Shown: positions 1-5,816, counted from the first letter of the stretch. The stretch is 5,995 nt of DNA from Escherichia coli (GCF_003334385.1 NZ_QOWN01000079.1); one strand, 5' to 3'. Notes: generated by a model not told the origin, from the sequence alone. Program-made: numbers and translations.

Positions 1-77
1 TGATCCCGTTACCTTCCGGGACCAAAATTTGGCTGGTTGCCGGTATCACCGATATGAGAAATGGCTTCAACGGCCTG
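1..77 (+). mobile_element. tnpB: 5' fragment of an IS66-family tnpB (orf2); truncated remnant
   Basis: Frame 3 from nt 3 translates [25 protein letters not shown], which I recognise as the conserved N-terminus of IS66-family TnpB. The window opens inside an ATGA overlap (tnpA stop / tnpB start), as is typical for IS66. The resemblance stops at about nt 77 and the frame terminates at 114-116, so the rest of tnpB, tnpC and the right inverted repeat are missing. Confidence 0.5.
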
Positions 78-457
78 TTAAGAATTTCCTGGCGAAGAAC
101 TCTTTCTTTTGCATGAGCTGAATTAATTCGGATATCCAATGGCATGGCAAGTCGCTCAATCGTATAAGAATACACCCCATTCTGAGCATTCATTATATCG
201 GTATGGATATGACGACTAAAGATCGCTATGCTGAAGGCAAGAAAAATCATACCTATAACAGAAATTGAGAAAATAAGTGAATAAGTAAAACCCAGTCTCT
301 GATAAAGAAAATAAACAGCCATACTGATTTCTACAGTAATTGGGAGTAGTGTCCAGAAAACAGATAATGTCAGCGCACTGAATGATTGCGCACCACGATC
401 AATATTTGCAGCCAGGACCGCCGGCTCAAATTCCTTTTGTTTCCGGAAACATATTCC
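78..457 (-). pseudogene. open minus-strand frame encoding a hydrophobic membrane-protein fragment (possibly a transporter transmembrane segment); no credible start, runs into the IS66 fragment
   Basis: Reverse-complement translation is open from the stop at 458-460 to the window edge: ...[118 protein letters not shown]... The first in-frame ATG is at 322-320 although protein-like hydrophobic sequence continues upstream of it, suggesting an internal gene fragment. The ORF track does not list it because it has no stop inside the window. Confidence 0.25.
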
Positions 458-546
458 TTAATGAAAATGAAACACCTACAACCTACATTGGTTGCCAATT
501 GCTCAATAACCATGAAAAATATAACTACTTATTTTAAAGTGTCAAT

Positions 547-565
547 GCGAATGATAATCATTTTT
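547..565. promoter_or_regulatory. Fur-box-like sequence
   Basis: gcgaATGATAATCATTttt matches the Fur consensus GATAATGATAATCATTATC at 15 of 19 positions, with the central ATGATAATCATT matching 12/12. It lies in the junction DNA between the minus-strand fragment and the colicin remnant. Confidence 0.35.
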
Positions 566-679
566 TATCATCAATGGTGGGGTTCTGAGGTGAAGATCAC
601 GAAATGGAAAAATCGTACTCTAAGCCGTTCACCCGTTTTCCGTCATCTGGTAGGTGTTGCAGTTACAATAAAATCACCT

Positions 680-1087
680 TTGCTGAATCTGCGGTAAATT
701 CGGCGAGAAATAACGTCAGTGCCAGAACAAATGAGCAAAAACATGCAAATGACGTTCTTGATGTAAAAAGAGAATTTTTGTTGCCAGCTTGCCGACATCA
801 ACCAGAAGAGAGCTGAAGAGAAAACAGGGTGAACTGAAGGCAACGATTTTGCTGACTGGAGCACTGAGTTTGGTAAGGTTGTCTGGACAGATAACTGGCG
901 TCCATTTTTTGTAAAACTTGAATCACTGGCAGCAGGAAGAGCTGCTTCATCTGTTACCGCATGGACGTTTTCCGTCATGCCGGGGACCCTTGTAGGTATT
1001 CTGGGTTTTGCAATTATTATGGCTGCTGTGAGTGCGCTTGTTAATGATAAGTTTATTGAGCAGAACAATAAACTTATTGGTATCTGA
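680..1087 (+). pseudogene. remnant of a colicin Ia/Ib-family pore-forming colicin gene (channel-domain fragments only; internal deletion and frame changes)
   Basis: Frame 1 (about 680-765) gives AESAVNSARNNVSARTNEQKHANDVLDV. Frame 2 (782-829) gives LADINQKRAEEKTG followed by a stop at 830-832. Frame 2 (833-1087) gives TEGNDFADWSTEFGKVVWTDNWRPFFVKLESLAAGRAASSVTAWTFSVMPGTLVGILGFAIIMAAVSALVNDKFIEQNNKLIGI*. These match, from memory, the start of the colicin Ia channel domain (NSARNN-SARTNEQKHAND) and its C-terminal hydrophobic hairpin (DW-TEFGK...WRP-FVK...hydrophobic hairpin...KLIGI/KFWGI). About 110 codons of the middle of the channel domain and the entire N-terminal translocation and receptor domains are absent. 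Confidence 0.65.
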
Positions 1088-1099
1088 CATATAATGATG

Positions 1100-1126
1100 C
1101 CCTTTCATTTTCCTGAAAGGGTTTTG
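1100..1126 (+). terminator. rho-independent terminator of the colicin transcript, overlapping the 3' end of the convergent immunity gene
   Basis: Stem CCCTTTCA (1100-1107), loop TTTTCC (1108-1113), stem TGAAAGGG (1114-1121), then TTTT (1122-1125) on the plus strand, 13 nt after the colicin stop codon at 1085-1087. Confidence 0.5.
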
Positions 1127-1452
1127 CAGAATATAAATATTAAGTAAATGGCAACTACAGGAACTGATATAACGAAACAGAATAATTCAAATATTACAGT
1201 TAAGCTTCCGCCAACTGGATTAGTAAAGAAGTCTTTTTGCCAGACTTCTTTCCCTGTAAACCTTATTACCATTTTCTGTATTATCTTCATTGAAAAAGGA
1301 AAAGTAATGGAGCTGATAATGCATCCGATGAACGCATAAAACATTCTTGAATTTTCCTGGTTATCTTTCCATCCCAGATAAAAAACTGTAAGAATAATGA
1401 AACCTGGTATCAGGCTTTTCAGAAAATACTTTACAGATATATCCGCTTTCAT
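1105..1452 (-). CDS. pore-forming-colicin immunity protein (colicin Ia/Ib immunity type), 115 aa, integral membrane
   Basis: Intact 115-aa ORF, convergent with and immediately downstream of the colicin remnant, which is the canonical arrangement for pore-forming colicins. It is strongly hydrophobic with several predicted TM segments (GFIILTVFYLGW, FIGCIISSITFPF, SLTVIFELFCFVISVPVVAIYLIFIF). An AAGGAG ribosome-binding site sits 7 nt upstream of the ATG on the minus strand (plus 1460-1465). Confidence 0.65.
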   Translation of the reverse strand: MKADISVKYFLKSLIPGFIILTVFYLGWKDNQENSRMFYAFIGCIISSITFPFSMKIIQKMVIRFTGKEVWQKDFFTNPVGGSLTVIFELFCFVISVPVVAIYLIFIFCKTLSGK

Positions 1453-1562
1453 CTGGTTTCTCCTTTATTGTCATCGTGTACTGGTGCGTGATAACATAAT
1501 GATAATAATAATCAATAACAATAAACTGTGTCACGTTTACATCATGGAACGGAGGTACTCCT

Positions 1563-1910
1563 GTGACTTTTGAGCAGAAAAAAGCCCGGGCCATTGCCCT
1601 GATGGACAGTAAAAAGATGTGGCGGAGCAATTATGCCCCTCCTCTTCTGCGTATTCTCTGGCGGCTGGGTATCCGGCTTCCGCCATTACCCTTTATGCCG
1701 TTCTGGCAGGTCACGGTGCTGACGGGGGGCTTATGGGGCATTTCCTGGGGATGTGCAATGTGGTTTATCTACTGGGGGCCGTCAGGAATGGTGGCAGGTG
1801 AGGCCATTATTATAAGTATCACGGGTGGTTTTTTGTTCGGACTGCTCATGGCCTCTTTCCACTGGTGGCGCAGGAAAGTTAACCGGCTGCCACCATGGGA
1901 TGATGTGTGA
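1563..1910 (+). CDS. small hypothetical inner-membrane protein (Trp/Gly-rich, two predicted TM helices); GTG start
   Basis: 115-aa ORF starting at GTG 1563, preceded by GGAGG (1549-1553) with a 7-nt spacer. Hydrophobic core VTVLTGGLWGISWGCAMWFIYWG and AIIISITGGFLFGLLMASF. A possible promoter is TTGTCA at 1468-1473 with TAACAT at 1492-1497. Confidence 0.5.
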   Translation: MTFEQKKARAIALMDSKKMWRSNYAPPLLRILWRLGIRLPPLPFMPFWQVTVLTGGLWGISWGCAMWFIYWGPSGMVAGEAIIISITGGFLFGLLMASFHWWRRKVNRLPPWDDV

Positions 1911-1927
1911 ATCGTGCAGGCATGTTT

Positions 1928-2518
1928 TTACGGGGTGACGCTTTCATTAACCTGTACACGAACTTTTATTCCGGCATCATGACAGGCCTGCAGCCACTGC
2001 GCCACTTCCAGCGGATCGCCCTCCCGGCGTACCACCCTGCCTTCTCTGTTCCATAACTGCAGACAGGTACTGCCGTCGAGACGTACCACAAAATCCCCAC
2101 GGCAGGCCTGATATGTCATGCCGTTCAGCTCCACCGCCAGATCAGTGGCAGAAGTGCCGTCTGCGGGCAGACCTGATGCCGGGACCAGCGGCAGTACGAC
2201 GACTTCTGCCGCACGCTGTTCTGCCCGGAGGCGGTCCTGTTCTGCCAGCAGAAGAGGCTGTGCCACGGCCCGGCCGGCGTCCGTCAGCTCCACTGTCAGC
2301 TGCAGGTTCGGAGCGCGCAGGGTACGCAGCCAGCCGGCATCCTCCAGACGACGGCAGGAGGCGCGCAGGTTTGGCCCGTAGACCGGGGCTTCCCCGCTTC
2401 GCTCCAGCACCCGTTCTATGTCCCGCGTCAGTACGGGCCCCGGCCGTTTTTCATCAAGGGCAGCCAGCACAATCAGCACTCTCCGCTGCAGTGGCGACGG
2501 TCGGCGGCTCTGGGTCAT
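1928..2518 (-). CDS. hypothetical protein, 196 aa, G+C-rich; Arg-rich N-terminus with a possible winged-helix DNA-binding region; second gene of a coupled pair
   Basis: ORF MTQSRRPSPLQRRVLIVLAALDEKRPGPVLTRDIERVLERSG...NLRASCRRLEDAGWLRTLR...; its ATG (2518-2516) overlaps the TAA of the upstream gene as TAATG, indicating translational coupling. Codon usage is consistently G+C-rich. Function unknown. Confidence 0.55.
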   Translation of the reverse strand: MTQSRRPSPLQRRVLIVLAALDEKRPGPVLTRDIERVLERSGEAPVYGPNLRASCRRLEDAGWLRTLRAPNLQLTVELTDAGRAVAQPLLLAEQDRLRAEQRAAEVVVLPLVPASGLPADGTSATDLAVELNGMTYQACRGDFVVRLDGSTCLQLWNREGRVVRREGDPLEVAQWLQACHDAGIKVRVQVNESVTP

Positions 2519-2775
2519 TACCTGTCATCCTCCGGCCAGATGAGCTTTCTGAGGCGCTGAAAGTCGGCGTCAATGAGCTCCGGTCTCTTTATGGCATTCA
2601 TTGAGGCATAGCCATTTATGGCCAGTTCATGCCAGAAGATCAGCACTGCTCCGGCTTTGGCTGACTCGCAGAGATAAATTGCGCCCTGGCTGTCCAGATT
2701 GCATTCCCGGATGCGTCGTTCCGCAAACCGGGTCAGTTGTTCATAGCTGAGTGAAAACATCCTTTCTTCATCCAT
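2518..2775 (-). CDS. hypothetical small protein (~85 aa), first gene of the coupled minus-strand pair
   Basis: The track ORF 2518-2892 has an AT-rich N-terminal extension that overlaps the palindromic repeats. The preferred start is the ATG at 2775-2773, preceded by GGAG with an 8-nt spacer, giving MDEERMFSLSYEQLTRFAERRIRECNLDSQGAIYLCESAKAGAVLIFWHELAINGYASMNAIKRPELIDADFQRLRKLIWPEDDR. Confidence 0.45.
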   Translation of the reverse strand: MDEERMFSLSYEQLTRFAERRIRECNLDSQGAIYLCESAKAGAVLIFWHELAINGYASMNAIKRPELIDADFQRLRKLIWPEDDR

Positions 2776-2851
2776 CCTGCACACTCCATCTGATAATGTC
2801 CTGTTAAGAAATAAATCATATTTTGAATCATTTATTTCTGCGCCTGTAAAC

Positions 2852-2904
2852 ATCATATCAGATATGATTATGTGATTAATGATAAATATCATATCAGATA
2901 TGAT
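2852..2904. promoter_or_regulatory. two identical perfect 17-bp palindromes (candidate tandem operators) upstream of the minus-strand operon
   Basis: ATCATATC-A-GATATGAT occurs at 2852-2868 and again at 2888-2904, 36 bp centre to centre. Each copy has 8-bp perfect inverted arms. They lie 80-130 bp upstream of the start at 2775; the AT-rich tract 2921-2933 carries TATAAT-like hexamers on both strands. Confidence 0.5.
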
Positions 2905-3222
2905 TTCATGTGTTTTTCTTGATTATAATATTAGTTGCTGGTTTTCCGCCGCGCAGATCCGGTTTCTGGTGGTCACGGATCTTCCTCTCCCCCACACAAC
3001 GCCACCTCCTATCAGCACAACATGTGGTATCTCATTCGGTTGCTTATGACACTATATGTTGTGTCATCTCCCTGACCTGTGATGCGCCGCGCAGGGGCGG
3101 AAAACAGCGATATGATTATTTTCTCAGCGTGGTACACTTCCGGAAAGTTGTGATATTCCGGAAAGTCGGATCTGACGGAAACGGCTCTCCGGTAATTTAA
3201 CGGCGTGGTTATATGGATGCTT

Positions 3223-3302
3223 GTTATCATGGTGATGATGATAACGGCATGATGTTATCAGACGGCGTGACGGTAAGGGCAGTGATGATGGATGACGTTA
3301 TC
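3223..3302. repeat. cluster of alternating GTTATC / GATAAC hexamers and GTGATGATG repeats upstream of the recombinase operon
   Basis: GTTATC at 3223-3228, GATAAC at 3240-3245, GTTATC at 3254-3259 and 3297-3302; GTGATGATG at 3232-3240 and 3282-3290. All lie 40-120 bp upstream of the ATG at 3343. Confidence 0.3.
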
Positions 3303-3342
3303 GCATGACCGTCCCTGCCCGGAAAAGAAAAAGGAGTCACCC

Positions 3343-3756
3343 ATGTTTTTTATTGAGAATGAAGGTCAGGCTGTCGCCGGAACGGATTACTGGCAGTCTG
3401 TACAGGCGCAGGCCGGATATGTCTACCTCAGCTGGAATGCCGGCGCAGCCAGGCTGCTTGTCCCGGATGCGGCAAAACATTTACTCAGGGAGATGCGGGG
3501 GGCTGAGTACGTCATCATCAGTAAGGGAACGCTGAATGGCCGCGATGCGCTGGAACTGGTATTTGAAGACGGCAGCGATGCGCCGTTTGTGATCCACATG
3601 CTGAGTGAGCAGTGCGATCGCCTGCTCCCCGAAAACAACCAGGGAGGGGGTTTTGTTGTCACCGTCTGGACGCGTGGCGGTAACCAGCGCCGTTATCCGG
3701 GAAAGTACCGTGTTGTGGAAAACCTGCCCGACGTTTCCCCGTGGAGTGAACACTGA
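3343..3756 (+). CDS. hypothetical protein (137 aa), translationally coupled to the downstream tyrosine recombinase
   Basis: ATG 3343 is preceded by AAGGAG (3331-3336) with a 6-nt spacer. Its stop TGA (3754-3756) is followed one nucleotide later by the recombinase ATG (TGAtATG). Sequence MFFIENEGQAVAGTDYWQSVQ...; no motif I recognise. Confidence 0.55.
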   Translation: MFFIENEGQAVAGTDYWQSVQAQAGYVYLSWNAGAARLLVPDAAKHLLREMRGAEYVIISKGTLNGRDALELVFEDGSDAPFVIHMLSEQCDRLLPENNQGGGFVVTVWTRGGNQRRYPGKYRVVENLPDVSPWSEH

Positions 3757-3757
3757 T

Positions 3758-4537
3758 ATGCAGCACCTGCCGGCACCGATCCACCATGCCCGGGATGCTG
3801 CTCAGCTTCCTGTTGCCATCGATTATCCGGCAGCGCTGGCACTCCGCCAGATGTCGATGGTTCATGATGAACTGCCAAAATACCTGCTGGCCCCTGAAGT
3901 GAGCGCCCTGCTCCATTACGTGCCGGATCTGCGCCGCAAAATGCTGCTGGCCACACTGTGGAACACCGGTGCGCGCATTAATGAAGCACTGGCGCTGACG
4001 CGGGGGGATTTTTCGCTCACGCCTCCGTATCCGTTTGTGCAGCTGGCCACTCTGAAGCAGCGGACAGAAAAAGCCGCCAGGACGGCAGGAAGGATGCCCG
4101 CCGGTCAGCAGACTCACCGTCTGGTTCCGCTCTCCGACGCCTGGTACGTCAGCCAGCTGCAGACGATGGTGGCCACACTGAAAATCCCCATGGAACGGCG
4201 TAATAAACGAACAGGCAGGACAGAGAAAGCGCGGATCTGGGAAGTGACGGACAGAACGGTCAGGACCTGGATTGGGGAGGCGGTTGCCGCCGCTGCCGCT
4301 GATGGTGTGACGTTCTCTGTCCCGGTCACGCCACATACGTTCCGCCATTCCTATGCGATGCATATGCTGTATGCCGGTATACCGCTGAAGGTCCTGCAGA
4401 GTCTGATGGGGCATAAGTCCATCAGCTCAACGGAGGTCTACACGAAGGTGTTTGCGCTGGATGTGGCTGCACGGCACCGGGTGCAGTTTTCGATGCCTGA
4501 GTCCGATGCGGTGTCTATGCTCAAAAGAATTCCATAA
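3758..4537 (+). CDS. tyrosine site-specific recombinase (plasmid multimer-resolution type, ResD/XerD-like), 259 aa
   Basis: Contains the tyrosine-recombinase signature residues: box I Arg (LWNTGARINEALAL), HTFRHSYA (H-x-x-R), and LMGHKSISSTEVYTKV with the catalytic Tyr. The track ORF 3605-4537 is trimmed to the ATG at 3758, which abuts the upstream stop. From memory it resembles the F-plasmid ResD protein. Confidence 0.85.
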   Translation: MQHLPAPIHHARDAAQLPVAIDYPAALALRQMSMVHDELPKYLLAPEVSALLHYVPDLRRKMLLATLWNTGARINEALALTRGDFSLTPPYPFVQLATLKQRTEKAARTAGRMPAGQQTHRLVPLSDAWYVSQLQTMVATLKIPMERRNKRTGRTEKARIWEVTDRTVRTWIGEAVAAAAADGVTFSVPVTPHTFRHSYAMHMLYAGIPLKVLQSLMGHKSISSTEVYTKVFALDVAARHRVQFSMPESDAVSMLKRIP

Positions 4538-4560
4538 GCTCTGACTTTTTTAAATCCCTT

Positions 4561-4712
4561 TCGGATATCTCATGGATATATTATCGGTATTTCATATTCT
4601 GTTGACATGCAGGACCGGTATAGAGTAAAAGAACATCTATTGAGTACCTCTTGGATATCCGAAAGGTGTCTTATGGGGTCTTTATGGGTATTACATGTGG
4701 ATTCTGGAGATA
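4561..4712. repeat. centromere/operator-like iteron cluster with promoter upstream of parA
   Basis: Repeated [C/T]GG[A/G]TAT motifs: cGGATATc 4562-4569, tGGATATa 4573-4580, cGGTATt 4585-4591, tGGATATCc 4652-4660 (palindromic GGATATCC), tGGGGTCt 4674-4681, tGGGTATt 4685-4692, tGGATTCt 4698-4705. A consensus -35 TTGACA sits at 4602-4607 but no clear -10 was found. Confidence 0.45.
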
Positions 4713-4716
4713 CACT

Positions 4717-5361
4717 ATGCCTGTTATTGCTAATACGCATCCCAAAGGTGGTGTGGGGAAGACAACTTCATCCGTAAACATTGTTGGTGAAATGAAGTCT
4801 GATACAGTTGATCTGGATACTCATACCGGGCTTTCTATCATTCTGGGGCTGAGACCTGAAGGAAAAGAAATTTCCGTGAAAGTACCCAAAACAGTGGATG
4901 AGTTAATCGAAATTATGACTCCCTACAAGAACAGCGATAAGACGTTACTTATTGACTGTGGGGGATTTGACTCAGATCTTACCCGTACTGCGATTGCCTT
5001 TGCAGACTGCGTTATTGTCCCTTCAAAAGACTCCCTGACTGAACGTATTGGTTTGATGCATTTTGATGGAGTACTGGACGAAATCAGCTCTATCATGGGG
5101 ACCGATATAACTGCTCACCTGTATCTCTGTAAAGTTAATCCTAACAAGAAGAAATTCCCTAAGCTTGATGCAATCCTGCCATCGTTCAAACATCTGAAGC
5201 TGATGAAGAGCCGCATTTCTGCTCGTGCAGAATTTGAGGATGTCATTGAGACTGGGATGGGAATCACTGAGTCTGTTCATGGGCGCTATTCGGCAGGAGG
5301 TAAGGAAGTTATTGCCCTGATCGAAGAAATCAATCATCTGATTGAAAATAACAAACAGTAA
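4717..5361 (+). CDS. parA: small ParA-family partition ATPase (type Ib, deviant Walker A), 214 aa
   Basis: N-terminal MPVIANTHPKGGVGKTT carries the deviant Walker A motif KGGxGKT. A hydrophobic strand ending in Asp (TLLIDCGG) resembles the Walker B region. The size is typical of small ParA/ParF-type proteins. GGAGA lies 6 nt upstream of ATG 4717. The track ORF starting at 4651 (TTG) is an N-terminal over-extension. Confidence 0.8.
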   Translation: MPVIANTHPKGGVGKTTSSVNIVGEMKSDTVDLDTHTGLSIILGLRPEGKEISVKVPKTVDELIEIMTPYKNSDKTLLIDCGGFDSDLTRTAIAFADCVIVPSKDSLTERIGLMHFDGVLDEISSIMGTDITAHLYLCKVNPNKKKFPKLDAILPSFKHLKLMKSRISARAEFEDVIETGMGITESVHGRYSAGGKEVIALIEEINHLIENNKQ

Positions 5362-5362
5362 G

Positions 5363-5447
5363 GTGTGTCTATTGGGTATCCATATAGTATCCTTTGGGCT
5401 TTTAATGGATATCTTTTAAGTATCTAACAAACATCCTGGGTTATCTC
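5363..5447. repeat. iteron cluster between parA and the adaptor gene
   Basis: tGGGTATCc 5373-5381, tAGTATCc 5385-5392, tGGATATCt 5406-5414, aAGTATCt 5418-5425, GGGTTATCTCATG 5438-5450. GTGTGTCT at 5363-5370 recurs at 5785-5792, and TATCTCATG at 5442-5450 recurs at 4566-4574. Confidence 0.4.
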
Positions 5448-5756
5448 ATGAGCAAAGCGAAATTTAGTGCACAGGCTGAAAAACTGAAAAACCTGGTGGA
5501 TTCTGCCAGATTACAAACTTCTTCTTCTGCCGTAACAGCAACAGCCCCGTCTCAGCCAAATGAAGGTGCAGAGGTAGTTTCAGGTCGTCCCGTGGCTGCC
5601 AGGACGAAGGCTAAGAATCTTAAGGCCATACCGCTGTCGTATTTTGAAGCTCATGCGGAACTTAAAGCGACCAGTAAAACATCTCTGGATTTTAGCTCAT
5701 ATATTATTGAGGCTATAAGAGAGAAGCTTGAACGTGATGGTGCAATAGGTCAATAA
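5448..5756 (+). CDS. small partition adaptor / centromere-binding protein (ParG/ParB-like, probable ribbon-helix-helix C-terminus), 102 aa
   Basis: Sits immediately downstream of the small ParA in the same orientation. It has a low-complexity Ser/Thr/Ala-rich N-terminal tail and a C-terminal segment (KAIPLSYFEAHAELKATSKTSLDFSSYIIEAIREKLER) consistent with a strand-helix-helix DNA-binding fold. Flanked by the iteron clusters. Confidence 0.55.
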   Translation: MSKAKFSAQAEKLKNLVDSARLQTSSSAVTATAPSQPNEGAEVVSGRPVAARTKAKNLKAIPLSYFEAHAELKATSKTSLDFSSYIIEAIREKLERDGAIGQ

Positions 5757-5759
5757 ACT

Positions 5760-5816
5760 ATCGGATACCTTAAGGGTATCTGATGTGTGTCTTTTAAATG
5801 CGTTATGGGGATTCTT
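5760..5816. repeat. iteron cluster downstream of the adaptor gene
   Basis: cGGATACCt 5762-5770, aGGGTATCt 5773-5781, GTGTGTCT 5785-5792, tatGGGGATTCt 5804-5815. These are the same motif families as the clusters at 4561-4712 and 5363-5447. Confidence 0.4.

Follow-up and report, generated by a model that had tools for sequence, protein, structure and literature searches.

A colicin Ib-type immunity gene beside the decayed remnant of an apparent Ia/Ib mosaic colicin at a colicin I locus of Escherichia coli

Organization of the locus

The window, by which we mean the whole 5,995-nt stretch of E. coli DNA analyzed, was identical at 5994 of 5995 positions to nucleotides 7452-1458 of L014, from a 210-kb contig of E. 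coli assembly GCA_900447915.1, and its positions 887-5918 shared 96.4% nucleotide identity with the region 3' of cib in L002, an IncK2/Z ColIb plasmid. This region contains imm, a DUF6404 gene, ORFs of 196, 85 and 137 aa, a tyrosine recombinase gene, ParA and a 102-aa ORF. The immunity gene and remnant therefore occupy the position where plasmids of the I complex and their relatives usually carry colicin I. Two direct repeats of 23 nt, 96% identical and each with the palindrome ATCATATCAGATATGAT, are located at 2847-2905, upstream of the 85-aa ORF (2518-2775, minus strand), and resemble a paired operator site. In addition, repeated GGATATCC or GGATATC-type motifs at 4560-4700, 5370-5440 and 5760-5800 flank the ParA gene and the 102-aa ORF and are possibly partition sites. 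A search of the whole window against Rfam gave no match, and PADLOC returned nothing for imm, the toxin remnant or the DUF6404 gene.

The colicin Ib-type immunity gene, imm, is present at 1105-1452 on the minus strand as an intact, open frame of 115 codons, convergent with the colicin remnant and separated from it by 17 nt (colicin stop at 1087, imm stop at 1105). Its product was identical at 104 of 115 residues to WP_000762570.1, annotated as 'colicin 1B immunity protein', and at 105 of 115 to the IncK allele (90-91%), but at only 25 of 109 (23%) to the colicin Ia immunity protein. Residues 44-81 matched the profile PF03526 (i-E 8.6e-7), whereas no NCBIfam model was matched and a PDB sequence search found nothing. 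Kyte-Doolittle peaks mark hydrophobic segments at approximately residues 9-27, 37-58 and 81-110, a profile that predicts a small inner-membrane protein with three helices. On every sequence criterion, the protein is placed in the Ib immunity family.

The signals around imm also appear complete. A Shine-Dalgarno sequence, AAGGAG, lies 7 nt upstream of the imm ATG (1460-1465, minus strand), and the predicted promoter on the same strand, running from 1534 to 1505, consists of a -35 hexamer GTGACA (1534-1529), an 18-nt spacer and a -10 hexamer TATTAT (1510-1505). Two overlapping Fur-box-like 19-mers, at 1495-1513 and 1501-1519 on the minus strand, each match at 16 of 19 positions (0 of 200 shuffles reached two matches); they overlap the predicted imm -10 and lie just past the predicted -10 of the divergent DUF6404 gene, and these boxes and both promoter hexamers are invariant across Ia and Ib loci. 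Colicin Ib-type toxins enter through Cir and TonB, and the positions of the boxes suggest that imm, the DUF6404 gene or both may be regulated by iron in step with the Cir receptor. Next to the boxes, in the imm/DUF6404 intergenic region, the window has an 8-nt deletion at 1497/1498, where Ia and Ib loci carry ATCACAGA. On the plus strand, a hairpin at 1099-1122 with a 9-bp stem followed by UUUUG (-12.4 kcal/mol, z -2.4) overlaps the last imm codons and is likely the terminator of the colicin transcript; a consensus terminator scan did not flag it, because it is followed by just four U residues. The original prediction, made from the sequence alone, had called the convergent 115-aa immunity ORF, its ribosome-binding site and the inter-gene terminator intact, and all three were borne out. 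No functional cognate toxin was found within the window or the 12.3 kb of L014.

Decay of the colicin gene

With the intact 626-aa colicin Ib from L002 as the tblastn query, positions 667-762 were found to correspond to residues 385-416 (29/32 identical) and positions 845-1084 to residues 547-626 (67/80 identical, E 6e-34), the latter also matching PF01024, the colicin pore domain of 185 positions, from model position 113 to its end at 185 (E 7.3e-16). Alignment to both the Ia and Ib genes, which had been suggested as a check on the original prediction, thus gave significant matches to a pore-forming colicin and allowed the deletion junctions to be mapped. Based on a five-way DNA alignment and a segment-by-segment comparison, the remnant consists of four plus-strand segments: codons 385-416 in frame 1 (667-764), after the junction at 666/667; codons ~421-438 in frame 2 (765-818), after a net deletion of 11 nt; codons 441-449 in frame 3 (819-845), after a 5-nt deletion; and codons 547-626 with the stop in frame 2 (845-1087), after a deletion of about 290 nt comprising codons 450-546. 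All three deletions are out of frame. The last segment contains the C-terminal hydrophobic hairpin of the colicin.

A TGA stop is present in frame 2 at 830-832 of the window. Since 10 of 11 aligned related sequences have TGT at this position, with L004 also having TGA, the stop is a nonsense change that came later, when the gene was already inactive. The gene lacks its promoter and codons 1-384 (61% of its length), no colicin similarity being found upstream of 667, and with them the translocation and Cir-binding domains (residues 1-~385). The channel domain is likewise neither complete nor in a single frame: PF01024 positions 113-185 of 185 are left, with three frame changes and the TGA. In a 263-aa ORF of a related plasmid, L003, in which residue 23 is colicin residue 385, PF01024 starts at residue 77, equivalent to colicin residue ~439, and codons 385-449 thus lie almost wholly upstream of the channel domain, mostly in the upstream helix. 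cib is regulated by an SOS (LexA) and Fur-controlled promoter (PMC3879352), and in the window its native upstream region has been replaced by a transposon stub. A bare CTG-N10-CAG string at 647-662, inside that stub, was rejected as a LexA box. An active colicin cannot be made from the remnant.

The toxin gene had originally been described as two short channel-domain pieces, starting at 680, with frame changes, an in-frame stop at 830-832 and loss of the N-terminal two-thirds. The decay, the frame changes, the stop and the missing N-terminal portion are as described, but colicin homology starts at 667, the pieces are four, and the first stretch lies mostly outside the channel domain.

Mosaic origin of the remnant

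The assignment of the remnant to an Ia/Ib-type colicin was correct as far as it went, but missed that its segments differ in their closest relative. Positions 819-845 were identical to colicin Ia at 26 of 27 nucleotides, just a 14-nt stretch aligning with Ib; positions 846-905 matched Ia at 51 of 55, only the last 19 nt aligning with Ib (17/19); and positions 906-1087 matched Ib at 173 of 182 and gave no alignment with Ia. Over 723-818, a stretch in which Ia and Ib scarcely differ, the window departs from Ib at 12 positions. This comparison marks the remnant as a mosaic of Ia and Ib. Among the codons of 667-818 that differ from Ib, 5 are synonymous and 7 non-synonymous, spread evenly over codon positions, as would be expected for unconstrained decay. 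A tblastn search of PLSDB found no intact colicin closer than about 82% to the distal remnant, and a protein homology search started from the 80-aa distal remnant yielded 12 hits, all of them short fragments, with no full-length colicin among them. A full-length counterpart would carry AASSVTAWTFSVMPGTLVG...EQNNKLIGI at its C-terminus.

Transposon end and lasso-peptide cluster remains

Immediately upstream of the colicin remnant is an 80-bp stub of a Tn3-family transposon (587-666, plus strand), made up of a 38-bp terminal inverted repeat (587-624, GAGG...CTAAG) and 42 nt of interior sequence, and joined directly to colicin codon 385 at 666/667. The repeat is of the GGGG...TAAG type that marks Tn3-family ends, with one mismatch in the GGGG, and tnpR and tnpA are adjacent in relatives. 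For example, positions 594-645 align with a Tn3-family end in NZ_CP024272.1 (L023), in which the inverted repeat is followed by tnpR and then tnpA; the inverted repeat in L001 has the same layout (GGGG...CTAAG); and similar unannotated ends are present in Salmonella, Xylella and Thauera plasmids. No transposase gene of the element is left in the window. We infer that a deletion associated with the transposon took away the promoter of cib along with the domains for translocation and receptor binding. The original account of toxin loss was right about the truncation but overlooked this transposon end as its likely cause. A chimeric ORF of 70 aa (604-816, plus strand) spans the junction, with 21 unrelated residues, colicin residues 385-416 and then out-of-frame sequence. 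Its ATG at 604 was rejected as a native gene start, being located inside the transposon inverted repeat, and the ORF is therefore an accident of the junction.

Farther upstream, the window contains the remains of a lasso-peptide cluster, which the original prediction had also missed in describing the locus. Positions 78-450 (minus strand) are a non-functional internal fragment, codons ~121-245, of its ABC exporter, 98.9% identical to L001 1768-2140 within the annotated ABC transporter CDS (777-2501). At 449/450, a 2.75-kb deletion corresponding to L001 nt 2141-4888 removed the 5' end of the exporter gene and all three other genes of the cluster, which encode the B2 protease, the cyclase and the precursor. 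What follows, at 450-586 (minus strand), is the promoter region of the deleted precursor gene, with a near-consensus sigma-70-like promoter running from 545 to 518 (TTGACA-16-TATATT), its -35 abutted by a Fur-box-like site at 547-565 (15/19). In relatives this promoter drives the lasso precursor, whereas in the window an ORF of 8 codons and then the exporter fragment lie in its path. On its other side, the exporter fragment abuts an IS66-family element that is cut at 77/78 and is represented by a 5' stub of tnpB (1-77, plus strand). A 38-aa ORF over this stub matches IS66 TnpB positions 1-20, and the adjoining ORF in L014 is IS66 TnpA (94.2 bits, cutoff 74); L014 7337-7830 holds IS66 tnpA and the first ~25 codons of tnpB, with fimbrial usher and chaperone genes beyond.

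The complete lasso cluster was found in relatives L001, L004, L008-L013 and L015-L017 (L001 777-4888; L008 7004-11115). Its precursor is 62 aa long (MKKQSKEVKTSGSEHREIMIEIDASKSTNGTGGGSIIEGSYTVYRCDGGSVPSRPFGPPFCP), its cyclase is Asn-synthase-like, and the remaining two genes encode a B2 protease and the ABC exporter. An 87%-identical homologue is located on a Salmonella salamae plasmid (L021 1424-5611), its homology ending at window position ~563. A possible lasso core of 33 aa, with a G1 to E9 ring and two Cys, would be unusually long. A literature search by the precursor sequence and the RefSeq protein accessions found no description of the cluster.

Distribution of the module

At 99% identity or more, some 18-21 plasmids of PLSDB share the arrangement of remnant and imm, as do some 20 complete genomes of E. 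coli, and the exact Imm protein was found in 4455 index blocks of the assembly collection. RefSeq relatives with the same module annotate an identical immunity protein and a 96-aa remnant ORF. The complete lasso cluster adjoined the exact Imm in 9 of 10 places examined, and the backbones carrying the exact Imm included IncK2/Z (PLSDB typing) and Rep3-type (F-like) plasmids, as well as backbones with Tn3-family elements and backbones with colicin B/M genes. Some relatives carry other bacteriocin genes beside the module (L008 1-2734; L022 1-1813 and 10909-11726): genes for colicins B and M together with the matching immunity genes, immunity genes for microcin B17, and a gene for a nuclease resembling colicin E5. 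This is a bacteriocin-gene hotspot.

Elsewhere, cib or cia has frequently been truncated from its 5' side in independent events that likewise left imm in place. For example, an IS3-family element adjoins a 170-aa Ib remnant in L006 and an Ia-type orphan in L007, 5'-truncated cib with imm retained is present in H161, H180, H181 and H185, and H132 has an IS903B insertion. A 2025 survey in Nat Commun reported orphan colicin immunity genes in 243 E. coli plasmids, many of them beside heavily truncated toxins, and argued that these genes are maintained for defence (PMC12546727). An orphan immunity gene beside a broken toxin is thus of a kind already known and common in E. coli plasmids; what appears to be new here, as far as we found, is that the remnant is joined to a transposon end, that it combines Ia and Ib sequence, and that a lasso cluster, deleted in the window, lies next to it.

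Retention of the immunity gene

Taken together, the locus is the relic of a colicin I module, toxin gene and immunity gene, of Ia/Ib-mosaic type, borne by a large conjugative plasmid of E. coli, and its Imm would probably shield the host from Ib-type toxins. The toxin gene lost its SOS/Fur promoter and codons 1-384, encoding the translocation and receptor-binding domains, at the junction with the Tn3-family transposon end, and then acquired three frameshifting deletions and, in the sub-lineage of the window, a nonsense codon. On the opposite strand, imm is complete, with its own conserved promoter region and ribosome-binding site. Immunity proteins of the E1/Ia/Ib type form three helices in the inner membrane and intercept the channel domain of the incoming colicin. 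By analogy with them, the 115-aa Imm would insert in the inner membrane and intercept the channel domain of incoming colicin Ib, and the host would be protected from colicin Ib-producing neighbours without the cost of toxin production. Against this stands the difference of Imm from canonical Ib immunity at 10 of 115 residues, and its Ib specificity is therefore a prediction.

Selection for immunity after toxin loss is plausible, and fits both the recurrent independent 5' truncations that keep imm and the argument for maintenance made in the published plasmid-cluster analysis (PMC12546727). All frameshifts fell in the toxin, and the proximal remnant has ~8% substitutions, while the imm frame and regulatory signals were kept. 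These observations count against a neutral relic, in which imm would now be useless, would be intact owing to its youth and small target size, and would have spread by linkage to the plasmid backbone or the lasso cluster; we regard this explanation as possible but rather unlikely. In its favour, divergence within the lineage is about 1%, so young that a 348-nt ORF could stay open by chance. The imm DNA is 100% identical in 15 PLSDB plasmids, whereas their remnants each show 2-7 differences from that of the window and fall into at least four identity classes, including TGT/TGA; however, the contrast in polymorphic sites, 2/348 in imm against 8/421 in the remnant, is not significant (Fisher p=0.12). 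Loci picked by the exact Imm protein are biased to unchanged imm, and plasmids ascertained by DNA were used too. Four disruptive events all falling in the remnant and not in imm would have a chance of ~0.1-0.2 by length alone and are weak evidence. The two imm substitutions seen within the lineage (L004) are both non-synonymous, and dN/dS of imm against canonical Ib is 0.4-0.7, a constraint that is not strong. In addition, imm is split by an IS3-family element in NZ_CP069461.1, and in five related plasmids that keep the lasso cluster, imm and the distal remnant have been deleted through a Tn3-associated rearrangement. A 1-nt imm deletion in LR890663.1 was set aside as a probable sequencing error, since it falls within a T5 run and the assembly shows five gaps per 1.5 kb. 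The original prediction, a decayed Ia/Ib colicin with an intact convergent immunity gene retained by selection, therefore holds for what is present, the immunity gene being of Ib type, while the selective reason is plausible and goes beyond what these data demonstrate.

A different specificity is also conceivable, in which a third type of colicin I gave rise to both the variant Imm and the mosaic remnant, and the orphan's target is that unsampled toxin and not classical Ib. The 10 Imm substitutions, the change in the remnant from Ia-like (819-905) to Ib-like (from 906), L->P and P->L changes in the hydrophobic hairpin, the distance of the distal remnant from every intact PLSDB colicin and the lack of PLSDB imm alleles between 95.7% and 99.7% identity would all be in keeping with this. 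However, most of the residues substituted in Imm are exchanged for similar ones (A/S, R/K, L/F, A/V), recombination after inactivation could have produced the mosaic, L003 being an example of such recombination at this junction, and no intact cognate toxin was found, and we consider this explanation improbable. It is similarly doubtful that a third colicin I immunity type existed of which nothing else survives than the variant Imm and the remnant, its intact toxin being absent from current plasmid collections; if so, the widespread orphan gene would be a shield against a colicin that is unsampled or extinct. A residual toxin-antidote pair, in which the remnant still yields a short membrane-active hairpin peptide that imm must counteract, is highly improbable: the 96-aa hairpin ORF is open in most relatives (those with TGT), where it is annotated as 'colicin-like pore-forming protein', but its annotated start is ATC, which is not a canonical start codon, the window copy is cut by the TGA, only a 36-aa ATG ORF (977-1087) without a Shine-Dalgarno sequence is left, and pore-forming colicins act from the periplasmic side and not from the cytoplasm.

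If, as in the protective reading that we favour, the gene is active, hosts of the plasmid would resist colicin Ib while making no toxin. Colicin Ib has been shown to decide the competition between Salmonella and E. coli in the inflamed gut (PMC3879352). The locus records three events in succession: a transposon end put a colicin out of action, a microcin cluster of lasso-peptide type came to lie beside it, as seen in relatives, and that cluster was in turn deleted, after which only the shield was left in the lineage of the window, a natural series suited to asking whether defence outlasts offence on plasmids. The existing understanding of orphan immunity genes is unchanged by this locus, the specifics of which are of modest interest.

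Comparison with known systems

The closest named system is cib-imm of ColIb-P9-type plasmids (IncI1/K/B/O), which shares with the window the backbone (DUF6404, 196-aa and 85-aa ORFs, tyrosine recombinase and ParA), the convergent gene order, the intergenic hairpin and the conserved region upstream of imm, with Imm 90-91% identical. In contrast to that system, the window toxin lacks codons 1-384 and 450-546 and the promoter, is frameshifted and is Ia-like at 819-905; Imm carries 10 substitutions; and the imm/DUF6404 intergenic region is 8 nt shorter. The colicin Ia immunity protein (Iia, 111 aa) belongs to the same Pfam family and size class as Imm and shares its three-helix hydrophobic layout, gene position and upstream region, but at just 23% identity (25/109) it leaves the window protein clearly of Ib type.

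The orphans described in PMC12546727 likewise combine an immunity gene without a working toxin, a truncated toxin beside it and the same truncation across plasmids of different size and origin. That survey accepted only immunity proteins more than 99% identical to toxin-adjacent ones, whereas the window allele is 91% identical to canonical Ib Imm and may therefore be uncounted there; in the text consulted, no description was found of the junction with a transposon end, of a lasso cluster nearby or of a remnant combining Ia and Ib.

In L003 (LR890264.1), the lasso cluster, the transposon stub and the junction at colicin codon 385 are identical to those of the module, but the sequence downstream is gap-free canonical Ib, with canonical Imm. 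Its open 263-aa ORF (6043-6834; PF01024 E 1.7e-49) starts at the ATG equivalent to window position 604 and consists of 22 unrelated residues followed by colicin Ib residues 385-626, including the complete channel domain. The presence of canonical Ib at the same junction therefore suggests that recombination with resident ColI plasmids continues at this locus.
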